DNA of 49,627 bases, taken from contig JBGQGY010000011.1 in the NCBI GenBank assembly GCA_041497675.1, positions 1-49,627 of the forward strand. Direction: 5' to 3'. The translations under genes were made by a program, and so were the position numbers. The notes below the pieces were generated by a model that saw nothing but the letters and a program-made list of their open reading frames with translations, was not told where the DNA came from and did no database searches. This document shows positions 7,684-20,312 of this stretch, piece after piece. The first letter of the stretch is position 1. Each line of letters begins with the position of its first letter. Source of the stretch: a bacterium (lineage in GTDB: Bacteria; Sysuimicrobiota; Sysuimicrobiia; Sysuimicrobiales; Humicultoraceae).

Positions 7684-8940
7684 ATGACGCAGGTCGTCAG
7701 GGATGATCCCTGGGAGATGGCGTTGCGGCAGTTCGCGCAAGTCGCCCGCCGTCTGTCGCTGAAGCGGGGTATCGACGATCTTCTCCGGACCCCGCAGCGC
7801 GAGCTCACCGTGCGGTTTCCGGTCAACATGGACGATGGGACCGTCCGCGTGTTTACGGGCTACCGCGTCCACCACAGTGTGATCCTGGGCCCGACTAAGG
7901 GCGGCATCCGCTATCACCAGGACGTCACCTTGAACGAGGTCCGGGCGCTCGCGATGTGGATGACGTGGAAGTGCGCGCTGGTGAACCTGCCCTTCGGCGG
8001 CGCGAAGGGTGGGGTCATCGTCGACCCACGGACGTTGTCGCAGGGCGAACTCGAACGCCTGACGCGCCGCTACGCCCTGGAGATCACGCCGCTGGTGAGC
8101 CCGCACGGCGACATCCCGGCGCCGGACGTGGGGACCAACGCCCAGGTCATGGCCTGGATCATGGACACGTACAGCATGCACCACGGTCATTCGATCGCCG
8201 CGGTCGTCACCGGCAAACCCGTATCGATCGGCGGGTCGGTGGGTCGTGTTGAGGCCACCGGCCGCGGCGTGATGATCGCGGCCCGCGAGACCGCGCGCCT
8301 CCTGGGTCTGCCGTGGAAGGGCGCGCCGGTCGTCGTCCAGGGCTTTGGCAACGTCGGCTCCAACGCGGCGCGGCTCATGTGGCAGGACGGTTGCAAGGTG
8401 ATCGCCGTCTGCGACGTGGCGGGTGCCATCCACAACCCCGACGGATTCGATGTGGCCGCGCTGCAACAGCACGTCGCGCAGACCGGCAGCGTCGTCGGCT
8501 TTCCGGGGGCGACCCCGATCGCGCACCGCGATCTGCTCGAGGTCCCCTGCACGTATCTCGTGCCCGCCGCCCTCGAAGGGCAGATCACCGCCGACAACGC
8601 CGAGCGGATCCGCGCCCGCGTCATCGTGGAGGGCGCCAACGGCCCGACAACCCCGGAGGCCGACGAGATCCTCGGCGCGCGCGGTACGACGATCGTGCCG
8701 GACATCCTGGCCAACTCCGGAGGGGTCATCGTGTCGTACTTCGAGTGGGTGCAAGATTTACAAAGCCTGTTCTGGAGCGAGGACGACATCAACGAGCGGC
8801 TTGAACGCCTGATGATCCGCAGCGTGCGCGACGTGTTCGACGTGGCGCGCAAGCAGGGGATCGGGCTCCGGCTCGCCGCGCTCCAGCGCGCGGTCGACCG
8901 GGTCGCCGGCGCGCTGATGATCCGCGGTATCTATCCCTAA
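7684..8940 (+). CDS. gdhA: Glu/Leu/Phe/Val dehydrogenase (glutamate dehydrogenase-like)
   Basis: GPTKGGIRY, MTWKCA, GGAKGG, DIPAPD, GRVEATGRG, QGFGNVG, EGANGP, VSYFEW. Confidence 0.92.
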   Translation: MTQVVRDDPWEMALRQFAQVARRLSLKRGIDDLLRTPQRELTVRFPVNMDDGTVRVFTGYRVHHSVILGPTKGGIRYHQDVTLNEVRALAMWMTWKCALVNLPFGGAKGGVIVDPRTLSQGELERLTRRYALEITPLVSPHGDIPAPDVGTNAQVMAWIMDTYSMHHGHSIAAVVTGKPVSIGGSVGRVEATGRGVMIAARETARLLGLPWKGAPVVVQGFGNVGSNAARLMWQDGCKVIAVCDVAGAIHNPDGFDVAALQQHVAQTGSVVGFPGATPIAHRDLLEVPCTYLVPAALEGQITADNAERIRARVIVEGANGPTTPEADEILGARGTTIVPDILANSGGVIVSYFEWVQDLQSLFWSEDDINERLERLMIRSVRDVFDVARKQGIGLRLAALQRAVDRVAGALMIRGIYP

Positions 8941-8973
8941 CCTGTTGAACCCGCCGATCCTCCGCGACCTGTG

Positions 8974-10083
8974 ATGCGTTTTGAATTGATCTCGCAAGAC
9001 CCCGCCGGCGCGCGTCTGGGCCGGCTGCACACCTCGCGCGGCATCGTGGAGACACCGGCGTTCATGCCGGTCGGTACCAACGCCACGGTCAGGGCGATGA
9101 CGCCGGAGGAAGTTGCCGAGACCGGCGCGCAGATGATCCTGGCCAACGCGTTCCATCTCTACCTGCGCCCCGGCGCCGAGGTCATCGATCGCGCCGGAGG
9201 TCTGCACGCGTTCATGGGCTGGTCCGGCCCGATCCTGACCGACAGCGGAGGCTACCAGGTGCTCAGCCTGGCGAAGATCCGCACCCTGGACGAAGACGGG
9301 GTCACGTTTCGCTCGCCCGTCGACGGCAGTCTCCACCGGTTCACACCGGAGGGTGTGATCGATTTCCAGCGTGTCCTGGGATCGGATGTCGTGATGCCCC
9401 TCGATGTGTTGCTGGGATACCCGCACAGCGCGGAGCAAGCCCGGGGGGCGATGGAACACACATTGCGCTGGGCGGCGCGCGCCCGCGAGCATCACGCGCG
9501 CTCCGGCAGCGGTGCGCTCTTCGGCATCGTCCAGGGTGGGTTTGACGCAGATCTACGGGCCGAGGCCGCCCGGCGGACCGTGGCGATGGACTTCCCCGGG
9601 TACGCCATCGGCGGGCTGTCCGTCGGAGAGCCGCACGACCTGATGCACCGTTTGCTGGAAGTGGTGGACGCCGAACTGCCGCGCGACCGCCCCCGCTATC
9701 TGATGGGTGTGGGAAGCCCGCCCAGCCTGCTCGAAGGGATCGCCCGAGGGGTCGATCTGTTCGATTGCGCGCTGCCGACACGTGTCGCGCGGACGGGCGC
9801 CATTTTCACCACACAAGGCCGGATCAATATCCGCAACGCCGCCTTCCGCGATGACATGCGGCCGCCCGACCCCGACTGCTCGTGCCGTGTCTGCACGCGC
9901 ACGACGCGCGCGTATATGCGCCATCTGTTTGCCGCGGACGAGATGCTCGGGCCGCGGCTTGCGACGTATCACAACCTGGCATTCATGGGGCGGCTCGCAC
10001 GCGAGGCCCGTGGGGCGCTGGGCGACGGGCGCTACACCGCGTGGATGACGCGCACGCTGGGCGCGTATACGACACGGTGGTAG
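8974..10083 (+). CDS. tgt: tRNA-guanine transglycosylase
   Basis: TPAFMPVGT, LTDSGGYQ, GIVQGG, PRYLMGVG, Zn motif CSCRVC...HNL. Confidence 0.97.
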   Translation: MRFELISQDPAGARLGRLHTSRGIVETPAFMPVGTNATVRAMTPEEVAETGAQMILANAFHLYLRPGAEVIDRAGGLHAFMGWSGPILTDSGGYQVLSLAKIRTLDEDGVTFRSPVDGSLHRFTPEGVIDFQRVLGSDVVMPLDVLLGYPHSAEQARGAMEHTLRWAARAREHHARSGSGALFGIVQGGFDADLRAEAARRTVAMDFPGYAIGGLSVGEPHDLMHRLLEVVDAELPRDRPRYLMGVGSPPSLLEGIARGVDLFDCALPTRVARTGAIFTTQGRINIRNAAFRDDMRPPDPDCSCRVCTRTTRAYMRHLFAADEMLGPRLATYHNLAFMGRLAREARGALGDGRYTAWMTRTLGAYTTRW

Positions 10084-11178: not shown

Positions 11179-11889
11179 ATGCGTACCCTCATCGTGATGC
11201 CGCTGTTCAATGAGCGCCCGACCGTGGCGCGCGTGCTGGGCGAAGTGCGCCGCGCGGCCCCCGACGCGGATATGCTGGTGGTGGACGATGGCTCGACCGA
11301 CGGGTCATCCGAGATCATCAAGCGGGAGGCGGGCGTTATCGTGATCAGTCATCGTGAGAATCAAGGCTACGGACAGTCGCTCATCGATGGCTTCTCATAT
11401 GCGATCGAGAACAGTTATGAGGCGGTCGTCACCATCGACTGCGACGAGCAACACGAGCCGCGGCAGATCCCAGATTTTCTCGACGCGCTGCGGGACGCCG
11501 ACATCGTGTCGGGCAGCCGCTACCTCGATCCGAGCTCCGGCGGGGATCCTGCGCCGCCCGATCGCCGGCGTGTGAACGAAGAGATCAGCGCTACGGTGCG
11601 TGCGATCACGGGGTACCCGATCACCGATGCGTTCTGCGGTTTCAAGGCCTATCGTGGCGACGCGCTGCGCCTGATGCGGCTGACCGAGCCGTCGTATGGC
11701 ATGCCGCTCCAGGTCTGGGTGCAGGCGGCGCACTATCGCCTGCGGATCAAGGAACTGCCGACCGCGAGGATCTACAAGAACCCCGAGCGCCGGTTCTGGG
11801 GTGGTCTGGACGACGCCGAGGTCCGAAAGCGGTACTACGAAGGCGTTTTGGAGCGGGAGGTGCGGCAGTGGCTCGTGTCCTCGCCATAG
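11179..11889 (+). CDS. Glycosyltransferase family 2 (DPM1-like)
   Basis: MPLFNE, VVDDGSTDGS, NQGYG, DxD (IDCDEQH), GSRY, FCGFKAY. Confidence 0.9.
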   Translation: MRTLIVMPLFNERPTVARVLGEVRRAAPDADMLVVDDGSTDGSSEIIKREAGVIVISHRENQGYGQSLIDGFSYAIENSYEAVVTIDCDEQHEPRQIPDFLDALRDADIVSGSRYLDPSSGGDPAPPDRRRVNEEISATVRAITGYPITDAFCGFKAYRGDALRLMRLTEPSYGMPLQVWVQAAHYRLRIKELPTARIYKNPERRFWGGLDDAEVRKRYYEGVLEREVRQWLVSSP

Positions 11890-12551
11890 GCCCCCATCCC
11901 GACGATCTCGAGATCGCCATGGGCGGCACGATCGCGTTGCTCCTGTCGCAGGGGCACGAGGTCGTCATGTGCGATCTGACCAACGGCGAGCCGACGCCCA
12001 TGGGGACGCCGGAGCGGCGGGCCCGCGAAGCCGCGGAGGCCGCCCGCATCTTGAACGTGTCGCGGCGGATCACGCTCGATCTCCCGAACCGCTCGCTGGA
12101 GCCGACGCTGGAGGCCCGGCGCACAGTGGCCGAGGTCATCCGTGAGGTGCGGCCCGAGATCCTCTTCATTCCCTATTGGGTGGACGCGCACCCCGATCAC
12201 GTGGCGGCGGCCGCGTTGGGCGAGGCGGCGCGCTTCTGGGCCAAACTCACCAAGACCGACATGCGGGGCGAGCCGCACTACCCTCGACGCGTCTATCATT
12301 TCTTTAGCGATCACTACAACCTCCACATCGACCCGGCGTTCATCGTCGACATCTCGGCGCACTACGAGACCAAGATGGCCGCGATTCGCGCCTATGCCTC
12401 GCAGTTCAACGATGCGCGCGGGAACGCGTGGATCCTCGATGAGATCCGCGATTTCTGCCGCTACTTCGGTCGCCTGATCTCCCGCGAGTACGGAGAGCCC
12501 TTTGCCTGCCGCGAGGAAATTGGCATCGCGCGCTGGGATGGATTGATCTGA
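11868..12551 (+). CDS. bshB1: PIG-L/LmbE family deacetylase, BshB1-like
   Basis: GPHPDDLE, DLTNGE..GTPERRAREA, HPDH, KMAAIRAYASQF, YGEPF. Confidence 0.8.
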   Translation: MARVLAIGPHPDDLEIAMGGTIALLLSQGHEVVMCDLTNGEPTPMGTPERRAREAAEAARILNVSRRITLDLPNRSLEPTLEARRTVAEVIREVRPEILFIPYWVDAHPDHVAAAALGEAARFWAKLTKTDMRGEPHYPRRVYHFFSDHYNLHIDPAFIVDISAHYETKMAAIRAYASQFNDARGNAWILDEIRDFCRYFGRLISREYGEPFACREEIGIARWDGLI

Positions 12552-14149
12552 TGGGTCCGGCCCGCGGCGCGATCGAATGGCCCGAGTTCGAACTGGAGAT
12601 CCCGACCGCGTCGCCGTCGGCGGTCGAAGCCCCACCGTACGCGTCGTGGCTTGATCTGGCGCGGCGCAATCAGGCGGCGCTCGATGCGGCGGACGTGCAG
12701 ATCGGCGGTGTGCGTCTGGTCGATCTGCGGCGGCGCGCCCGCGCAGAAGCCCTGACGCTCGCGGCCGCCTACACCCGCGCGCTGGGCGTCGAGGTGGCGC
12801 CGGGACGCAGTGATCTCCTCCTGTGTACCGGTCACCAGCCGGTGCTGGTCCATCCCGGCATCTGGATCAAGTACCTGGCGATGGCGCGTCTGGTGCCGGC
12901 CGGGGGCGTCGGGCTAAACCTCATCGTCGACAGCGACGCGCTCGAAGAGGTGGCGGCGGATGTGCCGCGGAGCAACGGCCGGCTGAGCCGTGCCCGTGTA
13001 CCCCTGGCCGCCACCGGGACCGACGTGCCGGCCGAGGCGGTACCGGCGCCGTCGCACGAGCAGTGGGGCGCGTTTATCGCCGCAATCGACGCGCATCTCG
13101 CGACGTTGAGCGAGCCAGCGGTCACCGAGGCCTGGGGGCGGGCACGAACCCTGCTCGCGCCGCCGGCGCACCTGGGGCTGCCGGGCGCCCTGACCGCGGT
13201 CCGTCGCGCGCTCGAAGGCCCCAGACCGTATTTGGATCTGCCGGTGTCACACCTGGTGCGCAGCGGGGCCTTCCGCCAGTTCGCGCTGGCGATCTTGACC
13301 GACGCCCGGCGATTCGCCGAGGTATACAATGCCTGTCTCGCGTCCTACCGCGAACACTACGGCATCCGGACGAGCGCGCAGCCGTTCCCCGATCTGGCCG
13401 TCGACGGCGCGCGGATCGAAACGCCCTTCTGGTACGTTGCCGGCGGCCGGCGGGTGCCGCTGTCGGTTGACGTGAAGGCGGGCCGGCTGCTCGCCGACGG
13501 TGATGCGGTCGCCGCACTGCCGGCCGGTCCCAACGACCCGACGTTCGCCGCGGCGGCCATCCGGCCCCGGGCGCTCACGCTGACCGCCTACGCTCGCCTT
13601 GCGCTCGCCGATCTCTTTGTCCACGGCATCGGCGGCGGTCGCTACGACCGTGCGACCGACGCCATCGTGCGGGTGTTCTTCGGCATCGAGCCGCCCGCAT
13701 ACGCCACCGTGACCGCGACGCTCTTCCTCCCGTTCTCGGGTGGCGGCCGCGCCGATGAGGAACGCCGCCGCCTGCAGCGCCTGCTGCTCGACCTGCAGCA
13801 CAATCCCGATCGGTTCTTGCCCGCCGATGGGCCACACCACGAGCTCGTGAAGGAAAAGTGGGCGTTGATCCGGCGTCTGGACGAGGCCTCGAGCATGACC
13901 CGACGCGAGCGGCGGCAGGCCACCCAGCGGATTCGCGAGATCAATCTGATCCTGCAGGTGGCGGTGGTCGGTCAGGTCGCAGACGTGCAAGAAGCGATGC
14001 GGGCGATCGACGCGCGGCACCAGGACGCTGAGGCCACGGACTATCGTGGATATCCATTTCTCCTCTTTCCGGCCACGGCCGTCGATGGATTGGTCGATCT
14101 GCTGGCCGGCCGGCCTGTTGCGGTGCACCCGGATCGCGTGCGGGGGTGA
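12551..14149 (+). CDS. Uncharacterised protein, possibly divergent BshC-like ligase
   Basis: TGATG-coupled to deacetylase; TGHQP...HPGIWIK and DLFVHGIGGGRYD motifs; C-terminal coiled-coil-like region. Confidence 0.7.
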   Translation: MGPARGAIEWPEFELEIPTASPSAVEAPPYASWLDLARRNQAALDAADVQIGGVRLVDLRRRARAEALTLAAAYTRALGVEVAPGRSDLLLCTGHQPVLVHPGIWIKYLAMARLVPAGGVGLNLIVDSDALEEVAADVPRSNGRLSRARVPLAATGTDVPAEAVPAPSHEQWGAFIAAIDAHLATLSEPAVTEAWGRARTLLAPPAHLGLPGALTAVRRALEGPRPYLDLPVSHLVRSGAFRQFALAILTDARRFAEVYNACLASYREHYGIRTSAQPFPDLAVDGARIETPFWYVAGGRRVPLSVDVKAGRLLADGDAVAALPAGPNDPTFAAAAIRPRALTLTAYARLALADLFVHGIGGGRYDRATDAIVRVFFGIEPPAYATVTATLFLPFSGGGRADEERRRLQRLLLDLQHNPDRFLPADGPHHELVKEKWALIRRLDEASSMTRRERRQATQRIREINLILQVAVVGQVADVQEAMRAIDARHQDAEATDYRGYPFLLFPATAVDGLVDLLAGRPVAVHPDRVRG

Positions 14150-14209
14150 GCCCCGCGCGGGGCCGGGAGGAGTTGCCCGGAGCGCGTGGAAACGATACTC
14201 CCGTCGAGT

Positions 14210-15145
14210 ATGAAGAACGTCCGCCTGCGCGCTCTTGCCGCCCGGCTTGTTCCCTCGCTCGTTGTCGTCGTGCTCGTCGCCACCGGTTGCCAGCCAACCG
14301 TGCAGGTGCGGGGCGATGTCACGAGCCCGGGGGCCGGGTTTGTCCAGGCGCCGCCGCCGACCGCGTTGGTGCCGACGAACCCGCGCCCATCGGCGGTGCG
14401 GGGTCGTATGGTCTTCGAGCGCATCTGTTTCGCCTGCCACGGCAACGAGGGCATGGGGGACGGCCCCGCGGCGGCCGTCCTCACCGCACCGCACAAGGAT
14501 CCCATGGTCGACTTCTTCGCGATGCTGGGCATGCACCTGACCGGCGAGAAGTTGCCCAGCCGGCCGGCCAACTTCCACAACGTGATCGCCATGCGGCTGA
14601 ACGCGCCGTTTGCGCTGTTTGAAACGATCAAGCTGGGACGGCCGCACACCGCGATGCCCGCCTTTGGGGACAAGCCGGCCTACGGTGCGAACCGCGGCAG
14701 CCCGTCGCTGAAGGACAACGAGATCTGGGACGCCCTGTTCTACGCGTGGAGCTTCTCGACGACGCCGCAGACCATCGCGCTCGCGAAAGACATTTACAGC
14801 ACGCGGGCCATCGACCTCGACGAGCGGGCCGCCAAGGCGTACGGCCGTAAGTCTGCGACCTGCGCCGACTGCCACGGGACCGAGGGCAATGGGCGCGGCG
14901 GGGCGCTGTCCGCGCAGATGGGGGCCAGGGTGTGGGGGTGGGCGCAGGGGGTGGGGCCCGGGGTCTTCACCGATCACAACCTGCTGGCCCAACGCAAGCC
15001 GGCCGAACTCTTTCAACGTATCGCCGACGGGCACGGGTTGATGCCGCCGTACCGGAGCAAACTCAAGGAAGACGAGATCTGGGCGTTGGTCGACCTCGTG
15101 CGGGCGTTCATGTACGATTGGGCGCCTGCCAGGGGCCAGCGATGA
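14210..15145 (+). CDS. Dihaem c-type cytochrome lipoprotein
   Basis: Lipobox-like VATGC; two CxxCH (CFACH, CADCH), each followed by a distal Met motif (AMPAF, LMPPY). Confidence 0.9.
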   Translation: MKNVRLRALAARLVPSLVVVVLVATGCQPTVQVRGDVTSPGAGFVQAPPPTALVPTNPRPSAVRGRMVFERICFACHGNEGMGDGPAAAVLTAPHKDPMVDFFAMLGMHLTGEKLPSRPANFHNVIAMRLNAPFALFETIKLGRPHTAMPAFGDKPAYGANRGSPSLKDNEIWDALFYAWSFSTTPQTIALAKDIYSTRAIDLDERAAKAYGRKSATCADCHGTEGNGRGGALSAQMGARVWGWAQGVGPGVFTDHNLLAQRKPAELFQRIADGHGLMPPYRSKLKEDEIWALVDLVRAFMYDWAPARGQR

Positions 15146-15205: not shown

Positions 15206-15874
15206 ATGTCGAAGGATAACAAGACCGTCGATCGACGGCGGTTTCTCAAGATCGCAGCCGGTCTCCCGATCACGGCCGGGCTTGTGGCATTTGGATCGCC
15301 GCTGCTGCGGTTCCTCAAGCCCAACGTCGATCCATTCGCCCTGATCACGCCGACCGCGCGCGATGCGCCGACCGGCGAGCCCGTCGTAGCGGCCACGATG
15401 GCAGAACTCAAGAATCCCTGGGATTTCAAGTATTTCGTCTACACACAGAAGTACCCGCAGTACACGCCCGATGGCTTCAAGACCGCCGCCGTGCCCGGCG
15501 TGGTTATCCGACTGCCGAACAAGATCACGATGCCGTGGGACTGGGTGAAGAAGTCGTTCAACGAGACCCCAAAGGTAATCGAGACGGACATCATTGCGTT
15601 CTCGCGGATCTGCCCGCACCTGGGGTGCATCTACAACTTCGTCCGAGACTGGAAGGAAGTCACCGCCGGATACGGCGGCTACGTCCCGCCCCAGCCACGG
15701 CAGCACGCGCTCATGGCGTGCCCGTGCCACCTGAGCATCTATGACCCCGCGGACCCGGCGATGCCCGGTCGTGTGGTGTCCGGACCGGCCCCGCGACCCC
15801 CGCGGACGTTCTTTTACACCGTCGAAGGGGACCGCATCCTGGCGAAGTTCGTCGAACCCGGCGGGATTGCCTGA
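15206..15874 (+). CDS. Rieske [2Fe-2S] subunit of cytochrome bc complex, Tat signal
   Basis: DRRRFLK twin-arginine motif plus TM anchor; CPHLGC and CPCH boxes; GPAPRP. Confidence 0.93.
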   Translation: MSKDNKTVDRRRFLKIAAGLPITAGLVAFGSPLLRFLKPNVDPFALITPTARDAPTGEPVVAATMAELKNPWDFKYFVYTQKYPQYTPDGFKTAAVPGVVIRLPNKITMPWDWVKKSFNETPKVIETDIIAFSRICPHLGCIYNFVRDWKEVTAGYGGYVPPQPRQHALMACPCHLSIYDPADPAMPGRVVSGPAPRPPRTFFYTVEGDRILAKFVEPGGIA

Positions 15875-17034
15875 TGGCCGATCCGATGGGCGCCCTGCGC
15901 GAGTGGTACCGCGACCGGCGCGGGCGTCTCGACTTGTTCGACGAGACGATGGTGACGAAGCAGGACAACCCGTTCTTCTTACTCGGGCCAATGCTGTACT
16001 ACTTCTGGCTCGTGACCGTCGTCACCGGGGTCGTGCTGATGTTCTGGTACGAGCCGACGCCGATCGGCGCCTACAGTTCTATCCTTCATATCCAGCACGA
16101 GGTGCCGCTGGGCTGGTTGACCCGGGGCATGCACAAGTACGCGGCCGATGGCCTGATTATCTGTATTATCTTGCGCATCTACCGTCAGTACTTCCTCGGC
16201 GAATACAAGAAGCCGGGGGAACTGACCTGGATATGGTCGTTTCTCGGGCTGGTGCTCGCGATGATCTCGGGGATCACCGGCTACCTGCTGATCTGGAACC
16301 AGCGAGCATTCTGGGCCGCCAAGACGGTGCTGACGGTGCCGGTGTACTTCGACGAACTCACCGCCAAAATTCCGGTCATCGGCGAGCAGTTTCAGGTTGG
16401 GTCGATGATTGCCTATCTCTTCCTGGGCGGGCCGGCGGTCGGCGCGGCGACGCTCACGCGGTTCTACGCCCTGCACTTCGGCATCTCGCTCGTGCTGCTG
16501 ATCGTGATGGAACTGTTCGTCTATCGGACGCGGCGCGTGCGGCTGAACATGTCGCTGGTGCCCGTGGTCGTGTTTACGGCGATGCTGGTCTTGATCAGCT
16601 GGGCGCTCCCCGCCGAGCTCGGTCGCCGGGCCGACCCGAACCGCACGCCACTGCCGATCCTCTCGGACTGGTACTTCCTGGGTCTCTACCAGTACGTCAA
16701 GTACACACCGCCGTTGTGGGCAGGGTTGGGCCCCGGACTGCTCATCGGGTTTGGCATGATGGCGCCGTTCCTCGACCGGAGCAAGGGGCGCCGGCCGCTC
16801 GAGCGCCCGTTCTTCTTCGTCGCGGGGCTGCTGTCGCTGACGTACTGGATCGCGTTTACGATCCTGATCCTCTTCAACATCGCCGTCATCGAGCGTGAGC
16901 CGCCCATGGTGTTGTTGACGACGGCCATCGTGCTGGGTTTGGCGTTTATTTGGGAGATTAGCTACCGCCGGCGGCAGGCGCGGGCTCCGGCGTTGCCACC
17001 ACCGCCGAAGGCCGCAGCCCACGCGCACAGCTGA
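15874..17034 (+). CDS. Cytochrome b paralogue 1 (only bL-haem histidines retained)
   Basis: RGMHKYAAD (H87), TRFYALH (H201), GYLLIWNQRAFWA, SDWY in the PEWY position; multiple TM helices. Confidence 0.9.
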   Translation: MADPMGALREWYRDRRGRLDLFDETMVTKQDNPFFLLGPMLYYFWLVTVVTGVVLMFWYEPTPIGAYSSILHIQHEVPLGWLTRGMHKYAADGLIICIILRIYRQYFLGEYKKPGELTWIWSFLGLVLAMISGITGYLLIWNQRAFWAAKTVLTVPVYFDELTAKIPVIGEQFQVGSMIAYLFLGGPAVGAATLTRFYALHFGISLVLLIVMELFVYRTRRVRLNMSLVPVVVFTAMLVLISWALPAELGRRADPNRTPLPILSDWYFLGLYQYVKYTPPLWAGLGPGLLIGFGMMAPFLDRSKGRRPLERPFFFVAGLLSLTYWIAFTILILFNIAVIEREPPMVLLTTAIVLGLAFIWEISYRRRQARAPALPPPPKAAAHAHS

Positions 17035-17035
17035 G

Positions 17036-17317
17036 ATGCGAACACTGGCGTCGTGGGGCGCGTTTATCGTGGCGGTGGCGGCGTTTTCGCGGTTGTGGCA
17101 AGGTGTGCGTGCCGCGCTGGATGGCGACCATCTGTACGGGCCGCTGGAAGCGCTGGGGTGGATGGCGCTGTTCCTCAGCGCCATGGGGTACCTCGCCTTC
17201 GTGATCTATGCCGCCGACCGCGCATCCGGGCGAGCGACGCGCAGGATCCGTTTCTTTGACCGGGTGCTTGACCGCGCGCATCAGACGGCGCCGCGTAGAG
17301 CGGCGGGCGGCCTATGA
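17036..17317 (+). CDS. Small membrane protein (2 predicted TM)
   Basis: Starts 1 nt after cyt b stop; two hydrophobic segments; ATGA-coupled to next gene. Confidence 0.7.
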   Translation: MRTLASWGAFIVAVAAFSRLWQGVRAALDGDHLYGPLEALGWMALFLSAMGYLAFVIYAADRASGRATRRIRFFDRVLDRAHQTAPRRAAGGL

Positions 17318-17583
17318 ACGGTGGGAACAGTCATCAGTACATGATCGGCATCTTCGCATTGTCGCTGCTGGGCGTGACCTGCGCCGGGTTGATCCTGTTT
17401 GGCGAGCGGTTTGGGAGCACCGAGCACCGCGACCTGTGGCAGTTGGGTGGCGCTGCGCTTGGGGCGATCCTCGTCATCTACGGTCTGATCCTGCTGCTCC
17501 TGCGTAAGTTGGCCATGATCGAGCCGCGCCGGGCCGAGGCCGAGGACGACCTACGCGGGCGCTGGACCAAACCCGTGCCATGA
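17314..17583 (+). CDS. Small membrane protein (2 predicted TM)
   Basis: ATGA overlap; two hydrophobic segments (YMIGIFALSLLGVTCAGLILF; LGAILVIYGLILLLL). Confidence 0.72.
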   Translation: MNGGNSHQYMIGIFALSLLGVTCAGLILFGERFGSTEHRDLWQLGGAALGAILVIYGLILLLLRKLAMIEPRRAEAEDDLRGRWTKPVP

Positions 17584-17598: not shown

Positions 17599-18756
17599 GT
17601 GTACCGTAGAGTCTTGACCTCGCTGTTGCGGGCGACCATCCGGCTCGACGTCGCCATCAACCGCGTCTATCCTACCGACCTCAACCCGCTGTACTATACC
17701 GGCGGGCTCGCCAACCTGTTCCTGTTTGTGCTCGTGGTGTCCGGCATCTTCATCTTCTTCTATTACGTGCCCAGCCTGGCCGGCGCGCACGAGTCGATCC
17801 GTTACCTCACGGAGCAGGTGCCGTACGGCGGGCTGATCCGTGGCATCCACCGGTACGCGGCCGACGCGTTCATCATCGCCGCGCTGCTGCACCTGTTCCG
17901 CAACTGGTTTACCGACCGCTACCTGTTCTCGCGCGATTCGCCCTGGATCTCCGGGATGTTCCTGCTCTTCTTCGGCGGCGTCGTCGGCGTCACCGGATAC
18001 ATCCTCGTCTGGGATGTTCGCGGGCTGACGATCCTGGGGATCTTCAATGACCTGCTCAAGTCGATCCCGTTGATGGGGCAGTTCCTGGCCGACCTGCTCA
18101 CGGGTGGGCAGGGGCTCAGCGAGGGGACGCTGCCGAGGATCCTGCTCCTCCACGTCGGACCCGCGTCGCTGCTGTACTTCCTGTTGTGGTGGCACTACGT
18201 GCGGTTGCGGCATCCGAAGGTGTGGCCGCCGGCCACCTGGGTCATGGTGTGTCTTGGGTTGGTGACGCTGGCGTCGGCCCTGCTCCCGGCTGTCAGCAGC
18301 ACGCCGGCCGAGCCCGGCGTCCGGCCCGCGGCGATCCCGCTGGACGTCTTCTTCCTGCTGCCATTTTGGCTCGCCGGGTATGTGCCGGCGCTGGCGGTGG
18401 TGCTGCTGGTCGCGGCGTTGATTGCCGTCGGCTACGTCATCCCGTACATCGCGCGCGAGACGCCGCAAGAGATGGGTCCGCGTCACGCGGGCATCGCGCA
18501 GGTCATCGACGGCAACTGCACGGGGTGCGAGCTCTGTTACTACGATTGTCCGTACAACGCGATTGTGATGGTTGCCTCCCCATACCCCGGGCTCAGCCGG
18601 GCGGCGGCGAGCCGGAAGCTGTTGGCCGTCGTGCTCGATTCACGGTGCGTCGAGTGCGGTATCTGCATCGGCGCCTGCCCCTTTGAGGCGCTCGAGCTTC
18701 CCGGGATGTTGGAGAGCGAGATCACCCAGCGCGCGGCCGCGGCGGTGCAGGCATGA
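17599..18756 (+). CDS. Cytochrome b paralogue 2 fused to C-terminal 2[4Fe-4S] ferredoxin domain
   Basis: H84/H98 and H185/H199 pairs 14 residues apart; CTGCELCYYDCP and CVECGICIGACP; AGGAGG RBS before GTG. Confidence 0.9.
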   Translation: MYRRVLTSLLRATIRLDVAINRVYPTDLNPLYYTGGLANLFLFVLVVSGIFIFFYYVPSLAGAHESIRYLTEQVPYGGLIRGIHRYAADAFIIAALLHLFRNWFTDRYLFSRDSPWISGMFLLFFGGVVGVTGYILVWDVRGLTILGIFNDLLKSIPLMGQFLADLLTGGQGLSEGTLPRILLLHVGPASLLYFLLWWHYVRLRHPKVWPPATWVMVCLGLVTLASALLPAVSSTPAEPGVRPAAIPLDVFFLLPFWLAGYVPALAVVLLVAALIAVGYVIPYIARETPQEMGPRHAGIAQVIDGNCTGCELCYYDCPYNAIVMVASPYPGLSRAAASRKLLAVVLDSRCVECGICIGACPFEALELPGMLESEITQRAAAAVQA

Positions 18757-19217
18757 GCACGACGCCAAAGGTCGTCGGGCTCGTGTGTGATTGGGCGGTG
18801 GTCACCGCCGAGATCGCGGACGCCGCGGGTCGGCTGCGCGCCCACCCGTCGGTGACGATTATCCGCGTGCCGTGCTCGGGGTTCATCCGTCCTGCCTGGT
18901 TGGAGGACACGTTGAAGGCCGGCGCCGACGGCGTCTTCGTGGTCGGCTGCCCGTACGGCGACTGCCTCAACCGCGAGGGCAACTACCTGATGCGCGAGCG
19001 CATGGATCAACTGCAGCGGCGGCTCGCACGGCGCAAGATCCCGGCCGAACGGCTGGGGATGCTGGCCTACGGCCTGCACGACGTCGAGGCCTTCCTGGCC
19101 GAAGTGGCCGCATTTCTCAAGCGGCTTGAGGCCCTCGGCCCGCCCGCACCTCCCGGCCGCCCGGCCCGGCCTGCCCAGGCCGCGTCGCAACCCGTCCAGA
19201 CGGAGGAGGGGGCATGA
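18753..19217 (+). CDS. MvhD/FlpD-family [2Fe-2S] protein (hydrogenase iron-sulfur subunit-like)
   Basis: VGLVCDW, IIRVPCSG, GADGVFVVGCPYGDC.NREGN, IPAERL; ATGA overlap. Confidence 0.88.
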   Translation: MSTTPKVVGLVCDWAVVTAEIADAAGRLRAHPSVTIIRVPCSGFIRPAWLEDTLKAGADGVFVVGCPYGDCLNREGNYLMRERMDQLQRRLARRKIPAERLGMLAYGLHDVEAFLAEVAAFLKRLEALGPPAPPGRPARPAQAASQPVQTEEGA

Positions 19218-19318
19218 AGCGACCGCTGAGGGTCTGGCTGGCATATCTGTTTTTCTACATCCTCTTCTTCTTGATCCTCACCTTCGTGGCATCGTTCGGC
19301 CTCATTGCGGAAGCCTGA
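19214..19318 (+). CDS. 34-aa single-TM microprotein (not in ORF track)
   Basis: MKRPLRVWLAYLFFYILFFLILTFVASFGLIAEA; GGAGGAGG RBS at 19202-19209; ATGA overlap with the MvhD-like gene. Confidence 0.75.
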   Translation: MKRPLRVWLAYLFFYILFFLILTFVASFGLIAEA

Positions 19319-19334
19319 CCAGGTCGACAACTCA

Positions 19335-20312
19335 ATGCCTGCCGACCTCGAGCAGATCTACAGGCCTGTCGCGTCCGACCTGAGCGCACTGGACGCGCTG
19401 CTCCGGCGCGAGCTCGCCACCGCCGATCCGTTTATTGGCGAACTGGTCGGACACGTCCTCACGACGCGCGGGAAGCTCATCAGGCCGGCCCTGGCGCTCT
19501 TGTCGGCTCAGGCCTGCGGCGGGGCGGATGAGCAGCGGATGTGGCTGGCCGGCACGGTCGAACTCATCCATATCGCGTCGCTGATCCACGACGATGTGAT
19601 CGACGCGTCCGACCTGCGCCGGGGGATCTCGACCGTCAACGTGCTGTGGGGCAATCAAGTGGCGGTGTTGCTTGGGGACTATCTCTTCGCGACGGCCTTC
19701 GACTTGGTCAGCCGGATCCGCCACCCGGAGGTGGCGCCGACGATTGCACAGGCGGCGGTGCGCATGAGCCACGCCGAGATCACGGCTGTCAAGACCGGCG
19801 GTGAGCCTCACGAAGACGAAGACACCTATTTCTCGATCATCGACGGCAAGACGTCGGCGCTCTTTTCCGCGGCGTGCCGCGCCGGTGCGCTGATTGCCGG
19901 CGCACCGCGCGAGGCCGTCGACGCCATGGCCGAGTTCGGCCGCCAGTGGGGGATGTCGTTCCAGATCACCGATGACACGCTCGATCTCACCGGCGACCCA
20001 CAGGCGTTGGGCAAACCGATTGGGAGCGACATCGACAGCGGCAAGATTACGCTGCCCGTGATCGCCGTGCTGCGTCAGGCCGGAGACGACGACCGCCAGC
20101 GGCTGCGGGCGCTCTTGCGCGGCGCCGACCGCGAGGGCAACCTGGCTGAACTGCGGGCACTGCTTCACCGGTATGGGGGGGTACGGTACGCCCTCGACGC
20201 GGCGCGGGCGTTCGCTGATCGCGCGACCGCCGCGTTGGAGGCAATCCCGGCCTCGCAGGCGAAGGAAAGCCTGCGCGACCTGGCGGCGTTCGTGCTGGTG
20301 CGGGCCCGGTAG
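19335..20312 (+). CDS. Polyprenyl (hepta/octaprenyl-type) diphosphate synthase
   Basis: GKLIRP, HDDVID..LRRG, LLGDYL, DGKT, FQITDDTLD, GKITLP. Confidence 0.93.
   Translation: MPADLEQIYRPVASDLSALDALLRRELATADPFIGELVGHVLTTRGKLIRPALALLSAQACGGADEQRMWLAGTVELIHIASLIHDDVIDASDLRRGISTVNVLWGNQVAVLLGDYLFATAFDLVSRIRHPEVAPTIAQAAVRMSHAEITAVKTGGEPHEDEDTYFSIIDGKTSALFSAACRAGALIAGAPREAVDAMAEFGRQWGMSFQITDDTLDLTGDPQALGKPIGSDIDSGKITLPVIAVLRQAGDDDRQRLRALLRGADREGNLAELRALLHRYGGVRYALDAARAFADRATAALEAIPASQAKESLRDLAAFVLVRAR

Follow-up and report, generated by a model that had tools for sequence, protein, structure and literature searches.

The cytochrome b gene b1

The window analysed here, i.e., the whole stretch of 49,627 nucleotides of contig JBGQGY010000011.1 from a Sysuimicrobiota genome (assembly GCA_041497675.1), carries on its forward strand a tight cluster of co-directional genes which includes two different genes for cytochrome b, here called b1 and b2. 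The third gene of the cluster, b1 (15874–17034, + strand), codes for a full-length protein of 386 amino acids with eight helices in which the ligands of haem bL are present and both ligands of haem bH are absent. By sequence as well as by fold the protein is a cytochrome b with a haem domain (PF00033, Cytochrome_B, 3.7e-34, 118.6 bits at a cut-off of 27.2) and a C-terminal, subunit IV-like domain (PF00032, Cytochrom_B_C, 2.7e-5, 24.8 bits at a cut-off of 20.7). The closest solved chains in a phmmer search of the PDB are those of cytochrome b6 (E ~1e-34). An AlphaFold2 model built from 63 orthologues has eight long helices (predicted local distance difference test score, pLDDT, 80.8; predicted template-modelling score, pTM, 0.82), and in a Foldseek comparison it matches the cytochrome b chains of bc1 complexes with a template-modelling score of ~0.65.

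The translation contains H87 (codon CAC, 16132–16134), the helix B ligand of haem bL, and H201 (codon CAC, 16474–16476), its helix D ligand. The helix B position of the haem bH ligand is occupied by R101 (codon CGC, 16174–16176), and at the helix D position, 14 and 15 residues after H201, F215 and V216 are found (16516–16521). In the phmmer alignments with solved b6 chains the second His of helix B falls on R101 and the second His of helix D on V216. In addition, helix D has gained a Glu which is specific to the clade described below, E213 (16510–16512), and the PEWY or PDWY motif of the quinol oxidation site (Qo) is replaced by SDWY (residues 264–267, 16663–16674). The only further His residues of b1 are H72, H75, H383, and H385; R104 is also present. 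All residues and codons named in the original prediction, namely H87, R101 with its CGC codon, H201, F215/V216, and SDWY, are found in the translation. The same holds for the reported lack of the haem ci Cys, as the Cys of b6 is aligned to L36 of b1 and this column is free of Cys in all 80 b1 rows from the window and related loci that cover it. Of the four axial His residues which ligate bL and bH in cytochromes b, in pairs spaced by 14 residues on helix B and by 14–15 on helix D, b1 has only H87 and H201, and it also departs from the b6 type by its unsplit chain of both domains and by the missing Cys of the CxGG motif. Judged by its sequence, b1 is a cytochrome b, yet it is neither of the canonical bc1/b6f type nor of the b6 type.

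Conservation of the ligand loss

Two alignments were used to follow the loss. The first comprises b1 and 120 listed homologues with 68–99% identity (n = 121), and the second comprises 80 loci from a genome scan with one genome per species together with the window (81 rows). Both bL ligands are invariant, H87 being a His in 121/121 homologues and 80/80 covering locus rows and H201 in 121/121 and 79/79, respectively. R104 is found in 121/121 homologues as well. Position 215 is occupied by F (88 sequences), L (30), or Y (3) and position 216 by F (86), Y (29), or V (6); none of the 121 close homologues has a His at either position. The gained Glu at position 213 is found in 78/78 covering locus rows. 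The Qo motif is equally constant, with S264, D265, and W266 in 121/121 and Y267 in 120/121 close homologues and with SDWY intact in 78/78 covering locus rows.

The CGC codon of R101 is only one base away from the CAC codon of His. An error at position 16175 could thus mimic the loss of this ligand, and b1 could also be a decaying pseudogene. The orthologues refute these two possibilities, and we regard the chance of an artefact as negligible. Arg is found at position 101 in 121/121 close homologues and in 78 of the 80 covering locus rows, the other two (L068 and L071) having a Lys; the remaining one of the 81 rows has a gap. Among the 63 full-length orthologues all six Arg codons are used at this position (CGC 31, CGG 18, AGG 5, CGT 3, CGA 2, AGA 2), along with the Lys codon AAG in two of them, and it follows that Arg is selected for and that CGC is not a miscalled CAC. 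Moreover, the open reading frame (ORF) of b1 is intact, its third-position GC content of 0.88 is similar to that of the neighbouring genes, and identities of 40–96% with many invariant columns are held across phyla. The view of the original prediction that the substitutions are real thus stands. Orthologues with all four His residues, which that prediction did not expect, are absent: all 121 sequences combine R101 with a residue other than His at 215 and 216. These data support b1 as a real cytochrome b which lacks a bis-His site for haem bH. The prediction of a single-haem cytochrome b is likewise supported at the sequence level, a single haem being what such a sequence would lead one to expect.

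Extent of the R-type clade

Proteins of this kind are here called R-type. When 1.84 billion cluster representatives were searched exhaustively with HMMER, 63 proteins were returned at E ≤1e-30. In a survey of the haem ligands in the best 150 representatives of clusters at 50% identity, 113 have all four His residues and 22 combine an Arg or Lys at position 101 with the bL pair H87 and H201. The latter group consists of 16 proteins with Arg and no second helix D His, five with Arg and a His at 215, and one with Lys. Four further R-type sequences among the 150 are fragments. The full-length proteins include only two further exceptions to the four-His pattern, namely a protein with a Gln at position 101 and another without the second His of helix D, and the leftover rows are fragments. 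The R-type pattern is far from what chance would produce. A quick tree of 104 haem domain rows, calculated by maximum likelihood after the canonical rows had been thinned to every second one, places the 34 R-type rows on one side of a branch with a support of 95 in the Shimodaira–Hasegawa-like approximate likelihood ratio test (SH-aLRT). A single origin of the R-type loss is not contradicted by this tree.

The taxonomic range of the loci was taken from the record labels and from two taxonomy look-ups. The nearest relatives of the window are Sysuimicrobiota (CSP1-3) genomes. Labels of the R-type loci include metagenome-assembled genomes (MAGs) of Armatimonadota/Armatimonadetes and genera of Candidatus Sysuimicrobiota (Fervidifonticultor, Sysuimicrobium, and others), "Bacillati bacterium ANGP1", a MAG labelled as Bacillota, Fimbriimonadaceae, and Anaerolineae. 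Many loci are labelled as Melainabacteria, Vampirovibrionaceae, or Caenarcanales.

Two structural variants occur within the clade. A divergent R-type subgroup, seen in the representatives P0144 and P0145, has a large charged insertion of roughly 100–300 amino acids in the loop between helices A and B. These two proteins retain LPDWY and LLPFDQ, yet they carry the Arg at the bH position and a Glu in the column of E213, which hints that the change from His to Arg may be earlier than the change from Pro to Ser in the Qo motif. In addition, b1 orthologues of 440–596 amino acids (L059, L064, L078, L080, and others), found in Melainabacteria, Fimbriimonadaceae, and related loci, have a C-terminal extension of 60–200 amino acids in which no Pfam domain was found.

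The haem bH pocket of b1

Further residues have changed along with the ligands, as a comparison of 114 canonical and 21 R-type representatives revealed. G122, a Gly in 99% of the canonical proteins, is Ala or Ser in the R-type clade, and R115, an Arg in 96% of the canonical proteins, is Gly, Asn, or Lys. P140 is changed to Ile, D142 to Asn, and the first residue of the Qo motif from Pro to Ser. Position 213 is a Glu in 95% of the R-type clade and Gly, Ala, or Val in the 114 canonical representatives. Going by the topology of cytochrome b, positions 115, 122, and 213 would lie on the N side, i.e., that of haem bH. On the other hand, G38, R104, G52, G136, the WxQxxFW motif of the cd1 helix, and D-W-Y of the Qo motif are retained.

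It might be asked whether the old bH pocket of b1 still holds a second cofactor, either a haem bound by residues other than His or a quinone, which would then be held by R101, E213, and the Tyr or Phe residues at 215–217. Selection on R101 and E213 is strong, G38 and R104, which presumably lie near haem bH in canonical proteins, are retained, and a minority of the members has a His at position 215. Such a cofactor would, however, have to do without a conserved His, Met, Cys, or Lys, as none is found on the N side of either helix B or helix D, and residue 215 itself varies between F, Y, L, H, and M. In addition, G122 and R115 with their conservation of 96–99% in canonical proteins are lost. Taking both sides together we consider a cofactor in this pocket to be quite improbable. 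M212, which had been named as an alternative ligand for haem bH, was rejected as a substitute, Met being found at this position in only 6/121 close homologues.

The partner cytochrome b2 and the organization of the operon

The second cytochrome b of the cluster, b2 (17599–18756, + strand), starts 565 bp 3′ of b1 and is a fusion of cytochrome b (Cytochrome_B, 7.2e-30 in Pfam) with a C-terminal ferredoxin domain for two [4Fe-4S] clusters (Fer4 families in Pfam). Across 63 rows its four His residues (H84, H98, H185, and H199) never vary, and neither do its eight Cys. Hydropathy and homology yield about six helices, and with the usual topology of an N-terminus inside the cell the ferredoxin domain would be cytoplasmic. 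In the tree the b2 proteins form a long-branched clade with an SH-aLRT support of 100 which includes two of the representatives, also fusions of cytochrome b and Fer4 domains. Directly downstream follows the gene of an MvhD/FlpD-type iron-sulfur protein with four Cys (18753–19217, + strand; Pfam FlpD, 4.5e-29). The ferredoxin domain of b2 and this FlpD protein match consecutive parts of the NCBIfam family HdrA2 (571–641 and 646–773).

Upstream of b1 lie the genes of two further redox proteins. The Rieske [2Fe-2S] protein (15206–15874, + strand) has a twin-arginine leader (DRRRFLK) and the cluster-binding boxes CPHLGC and CPCHLS; its Pfam match (7.1e-4, 19.9 bits) is just below the cut-off of 20.3 bits, and the NCBIfam family Rieske_proteo is matched with 8.5e-10. 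Box II reads CPCHLSIY in the window, with a Leu in the position of the Gly and with Ser and Tyr retained; the usual form of this box we take to be CPCHGS. The Rieske gene is preceded by the gene of a membrane-anchored dihaem cytochrome c (14186–15145, + strand; Cytochrome_CBB3, 5.2e-16, and Cytochrom_C, two matched stretches) which has one N-terminal hydrophobic segment and is likely to be the high-potential acceptor. Related loci have a homologue 5′ of their Rieske gene.

Two small membrane ORFs fill the space between b1 and b2 and might code for small subunits. The first one (17036–17317, + strand, 93 amino acids) has at least one hydrophobic segment and no match in Pfam or NCBIfam, and many CSP1-3 loci have a homologue in the corresponding place. 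The second one (17314–17583, + strand, 89 amino acids) has two hydrophobic segments. A small ORF is likewise found between b1 and b2 in melainabacterial loci.

This organization is fixed. Among the 80 loci, b2 with its ferredoxin domain follows 3′ of b1 in all 57 loci with at least 2.5 kb of downstream sequence, the FlpD gene is present in all 56 loci with at least 3.2 kb, and the Rieske gene precedes b1 in 73 of the 74 loci with room for it. In two of the loci (L024 and L058) the genes of the operon were detected by tblastn only, as runs of N break the ORFs.

The presence of b2, a four-His partner encoded downstream, changes the meaning of the loss of the bH ligands in b1. We compared both proteins at the columns which are at least 80% conserved in 112 canonical representatives, using 63 rows of b1 and 63 rows of b2; the columns were placed on the N side (haem bH) or on the P side (Qo) according to what we take to be the topology of cytochrome b. 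On the N side the canonical residue is kept in b1 and b2, respectively, in 0% and 73% of the rows at P27, 0% and 100% at H101, 13% and 100% at R115, 10% and 100% at G122, 3% and 87% at L125, and 2% and 100% at H215. At the P/Qo side the picture is reversed, with values for b1 and b2 of 90% and 17% at L138, 95% and 13% at Q143, 95% and 0% at W147, 97% and 22% at F197, and 97% and 49% at W266. The ligands of haem bL are retained by both proteins. Therefore, b1 has kept what the Qo site needs and has lost the bH side, and b2 has done the opposite. The larger point of the locus is this obligate pairing of the b1 gene with a complementary b2 gene.

Proposed path of the electrons

Based on these observations we suggest that b1 and b2 form an asymmetric core, in which b1 with only haem bL provides the Qo site and b2 serves as a transmembrane wire to the iron-sulfur clusters. 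We would assign this reading a probability of roughly 0.55. The number of haems, the physical pairing of b1 with b2, the direction of the electron flow, and the final acceptor are what we infer from the ligands, the operon, and the complementary residue patterns.

According to this proposal, b1 would bind haem bL only and would oxidize a quinol in cooperation with the two neighbouring redox proteins, Rieske and dihaem cytochrome c. The quinol is likely to be menaquinol, as pointed to by the Asp-type Qo motif; in the available part of the Qo motif survey of Kao and Hunte (2014, PMC4122944) motifs of the Asp type are correlated with menaquinol. The first electron would be passed by the Rieske protein to cytochrome c and, in Melainabacteria, further on to the adjacent oxidase. 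The second electron would enter haem bL of b1. As b1 would have no haem bH and hence no quinone reduction site (Qi) of its own, this electron could not cross the membrane within b1, and it is unlikely that b1 itself feeds a Qi site. The invariance of the bL ligands speaks for an electron which is used and passed on. Most likely it would move laterally to haem bL of b2 and from there to haem bH of b2, to the two cytoplasmic [4Fe-4S] clusters, and to the MvhD-like protein. The final acceptor could be a soluble low-potential carrier in the cytoplasm or a quinone at a site of b2.

Alternatively, the operon could code for two enzymes that have nothing to do with each other. In that case b1 would form a homodimer and would act with the Rieske protein as a non-bifurcating quinol:cytochrome c reductase. 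Both electrons of the quinol would leave via the Rieske protein, haem bL of b1 would either lead nowhere or act as a buffer, and energy would be gained only from scalar proton release. The b2–ferredoxin fusion and FlpD would constitute a separate membrane oxidoreductase merely sharing the operon. Proteins with cytochrome b, 4Fe-4S, and MvhD parts do occur elsewhere without a nearby Rieske gene, as described for the "PDWF-FeS" clade in the available text of PMC4122944, and b2 retains an xDW[FL][FY] motif in its ef loop, as would suit an enzyme of its own. One copy of b1 (L013) has no Rieske gene upstream, its downstream sequence being limited to ~900 bp. It would be difficult, however, to explain with two unrelated enzymes why b1 and b2 with its ferredoxin domain are found together in 57/57 loci across phyla and why both proteins have degenerated reciprocally. 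The invariant bL ligands indicate that haem bL of b1 is presumably used. In addition, bc1 enzymes in which haem bH has been knocked out reportedly stall. Two separate enzymes therefore appear unlikely to us.

Several observations also weigh against the asymmetric core. A His is found at position 215 in 5 of the 22 representative R/K-type rows and in 3 of the 78 covering locus rows (L037, L063, and L064), in the latter never at 216. Moreover, b1 keeps G38 (95–98%) and R104 (100%), and given these residues its bH pocket may not be fully collapsed. The partial ef-loop motif, which occurs in many b2 orthologues, might mean that b2 has its own quinone site and acts separately. The b1 copy of L013 is the sole exception among the 74 loci with room for a Rieske gene, and an acceptor for the MvhD-like protein is not encoded in the operon. 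Finally, no fusion of b1 and b2 was found among proteins of more than 676 amino acids, a blank which carries little weight; the eight hits of this search are all fusions of cytochrome b and cytochrome c with at most 35% identity.

The L013 copy (8001–9224) is an orphan second R-type b1 with 78% identity and also has no cytochrome c gene upstream. It is flanked by genes of ChrB and a chromate transporter, and the MAG from which it comes also has the complete operon, on a separate contig (L075).

We also co-folded b1 and b2 with three haems. The median score was 0.57 (0.59, 0.57, and 0.52) and the best of three controls scored 0.00, with a pLDDT of the partner of at least 76 and an agreement of the contacts between the runs of at least 81%; the resulting verdict is "weak support". 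In the calibration the mark was reached by 116 of 157 solved complexes and by 2 of 215 mismatched pairs, and with scores of up to 0.60 it was reached by only 18 of the 157 solved complexes and by both passing mismatches. Dimers of cytochrome b are among the solved structures and the score may reflect this likeness rather than binding. We therefore count it as evidence neither way.

If the asymmetric core is carried further, a still more tentative picture emerges. The operon could code for a natural heterodimeric cytochrome b core, in which bifurcation at the Rieske protein and b1 would send one electron via cytochrome c to oxygen and the other one via b2 to the iron-sulfur clusters and MvhD, thereby replacing the Q cycle. 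This core would be common to Sysuimicrobiota, some Armatimonadota and Chloroflexota, and Melainabacteria. Were this so, a low-potential reductant would be obtained, or an Hdr-like enzyme would be fed, straight from the quinone pool.

Neighbouring genes

The gene of a polyprenyl diphosphate synthase of the type making quinone side chains (19305–20312, + strand) lies downstream of the operon; it matches the NCBIfam families IdsA, HepT, and solanesyl diphosphate synthase, all of them below the cut-off. Homologues are found 3′ of the operon in most CSP1-3 loci. On the other side, an ORF of 532 amino acids (12551–14149, + strand) directly follows bshB1 (11868–12551) and has no match in Pfam or NCBIfam (in NCBIfam at E up to 1). 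In CSP1-3 loci this ORF is conserved 5′ of the operon (37–77% identity). In relatives, as in L006 (361–6393), a cytochrome c maturation (ccm) cluster coding for a CcmA-like ABC ATPase, CcmB, a CcmC-type protein, and CcmF is located between the homologue of this ORF and the gene of the dihaem cytochrome c. In the window (12551–14186) ccm genes are missing from this place, and the ORF abuts the cytochrome c gene, which starts at 14186. The remainder of the window consists of housekeeping genes such as ruvAB, queA, tgt, gdh, bshB1, folC, folD, and others.

Genes for a C-type haem-copper oxidase precede the operon in L064 and in four loci of Melainabacteria. The gene order in these loci is CcoN, a CcoO–cytochrome c fusion, cytochrome c (not in L064), Rieske, b1, small ORF, b2 with the ferredoxin domain, and FlpD. 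A melainabacterial complex III–IV operon was reportedly noted by Soo et al. in Science in 2017.

Comparison with known systems

In work on cytochrome b its four His residues are taken to be invariant. Here, a clade spanning several phyla lacks the bH pair and keeps the Qo side, and its members carry a complementary second cytochrome b which is wired to cytoplasmic iron-sulfur clusters. An R-type b1 with such a partner is new among the Rieske/cytochrome b complexes, with a mechanism that we can only propose. We found no published description of the R-type clade, of its loss of His, or of the operon with two cytochromes b; subscription papers and supplements may hold one. In the main text of the paper on CSP1-3 (PMC11604079) the terms "complex III", "cytochrome b", "Rieske", "bc1", and "menaquinone" do not occur. 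According to the available part of the Qo motif survey, every sequence with one or more of the four His missing was dropped, on the stated ground that loss of a haem breaks the Q cycle (PMC4122944), and this filter would have hidden the R-type clade. SDWY keeps D, W, and Y of the motif and lies outside the six Qo patterns listed in the available part of the survey, and the string "SDWY" has no occurrence in it (PMC4122944).

With the canonical bc1, b6f, and menaquinol-type bc complexes b1 shares the fold, the bL pair, the WxQxxFW motif, D-W-Y, and the adjacent genes of a Rieske protein and a cytochrome c. It differs from the canonical cytochromes b in R101, in Phe or Tyr at 215–216, in the absence of G122 and R115, in E213, and in the Ser at the first position of the Qo motif, and its operon differs from those of the canonical complexes in that a second cytochrome b is always encoded together with b1.

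Natural losses of a His ligand of haem bH or bn have precedents. In a cytochrome b of Pyrobaculum the second of the His ligands of bH is missing (PMC4122944, as far as the available text goes), and in the short cytochrome b of the cyanobacterial "subfamily K" the His of helix 2 is replaced by Glu or Gln (PMC5600118). Compared by their descriptions, these cases concern a single ligand each, other lineages, and other substitutions. Unlike for b1, a paired four-His cytochrome b–ferredoxin partner is not reported for them.

In Melainabacteria, a "complex III/IV" with petB and petC beside a C-type O2 reductase has been described and annotated as subunits of b6f (PMC6349859, available part). The melainabacterial loci of the b1 clade and L064 match this arrangement. 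Missing His ligands, a second cytochrome b–ferredoxin, and MvhD are not mentioned for Melainabacteria in the available part of that paper. If b1 and b2 pair, the genes annotated as "complex III" or "b6f" in Melainabacteria and CSP1-3 would need rereading in metabolic reconstructions, and arguments on the origin of b6f would be affected too.

The partner b2 together with FlpD resembles the "PDWF-FeS" clade of Kao and Hunte (2014), which is known from Magnetospirillum and Turneriella and combines cytochrome b, 4Fe-4S, and MvhD parts (PMC4122944, available text); this comparison relies on the published description. In the "PDWF-FeS" proteins MvhD is fused and a Rieske protein is missing from the cluster, according to the same text, whereas b2 has a separate MvhD gene and is encoded alongside a Rieske protein and b1.

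A similar export of electrons has been suggested for the Rieske/cytochrome b complexes of anammox bacteria (Kuenenia). As stated in the available part of PMC12954380, the low-potential electron is proposed to be passed via the b haems to cytoplasmic [4Fe-4S] clusters and a soluble acceptor and not to enter a Q cycle. There, cytochrome b has both haems bP and bN and forms homodimers, and a separate iron-sulfur/FAD subunit serves as NAD(P) oxidoreductase. In contrast, the Qo-bearing b1 would lack haem bN, and the iron-sulfur domain is fused to b2 and followed by MvhD. If b1 and b2 pair, their operon would code for a second independent architecture, besides that of anammox, which exports the low-potential electron of bifurcation from the membrane.

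A functional model for an asymmetric core comes from the engineered bc1 complexes of the Osyczka laboratory, i.e., hybrid fusions of two cytochromes b and cross-inactivated bc1 dimers (PMC4152375 and PMC4330944, both for their available parts). Lateral electron transfer from bL to bL has been established for bc1 dimers, and in engineered cross-inactivated dimers the transfer between the monomers sustains function and growth in vivo (PMC4152375, available part). As in our proposal, one cytochrome b of such a dimer gives the Qo site and the other one the N-side path, with a bL–bL link between them. The engineered dimers are laboratory constructs of nearly identical subunits with point mutations, whereas with b1 and b2, which are proposed to pair, the asymmetry would be natural, ancient, and spread over two diverged genes. 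If they do, the operon would be the natural counterpart of these cross-dimer experiments.

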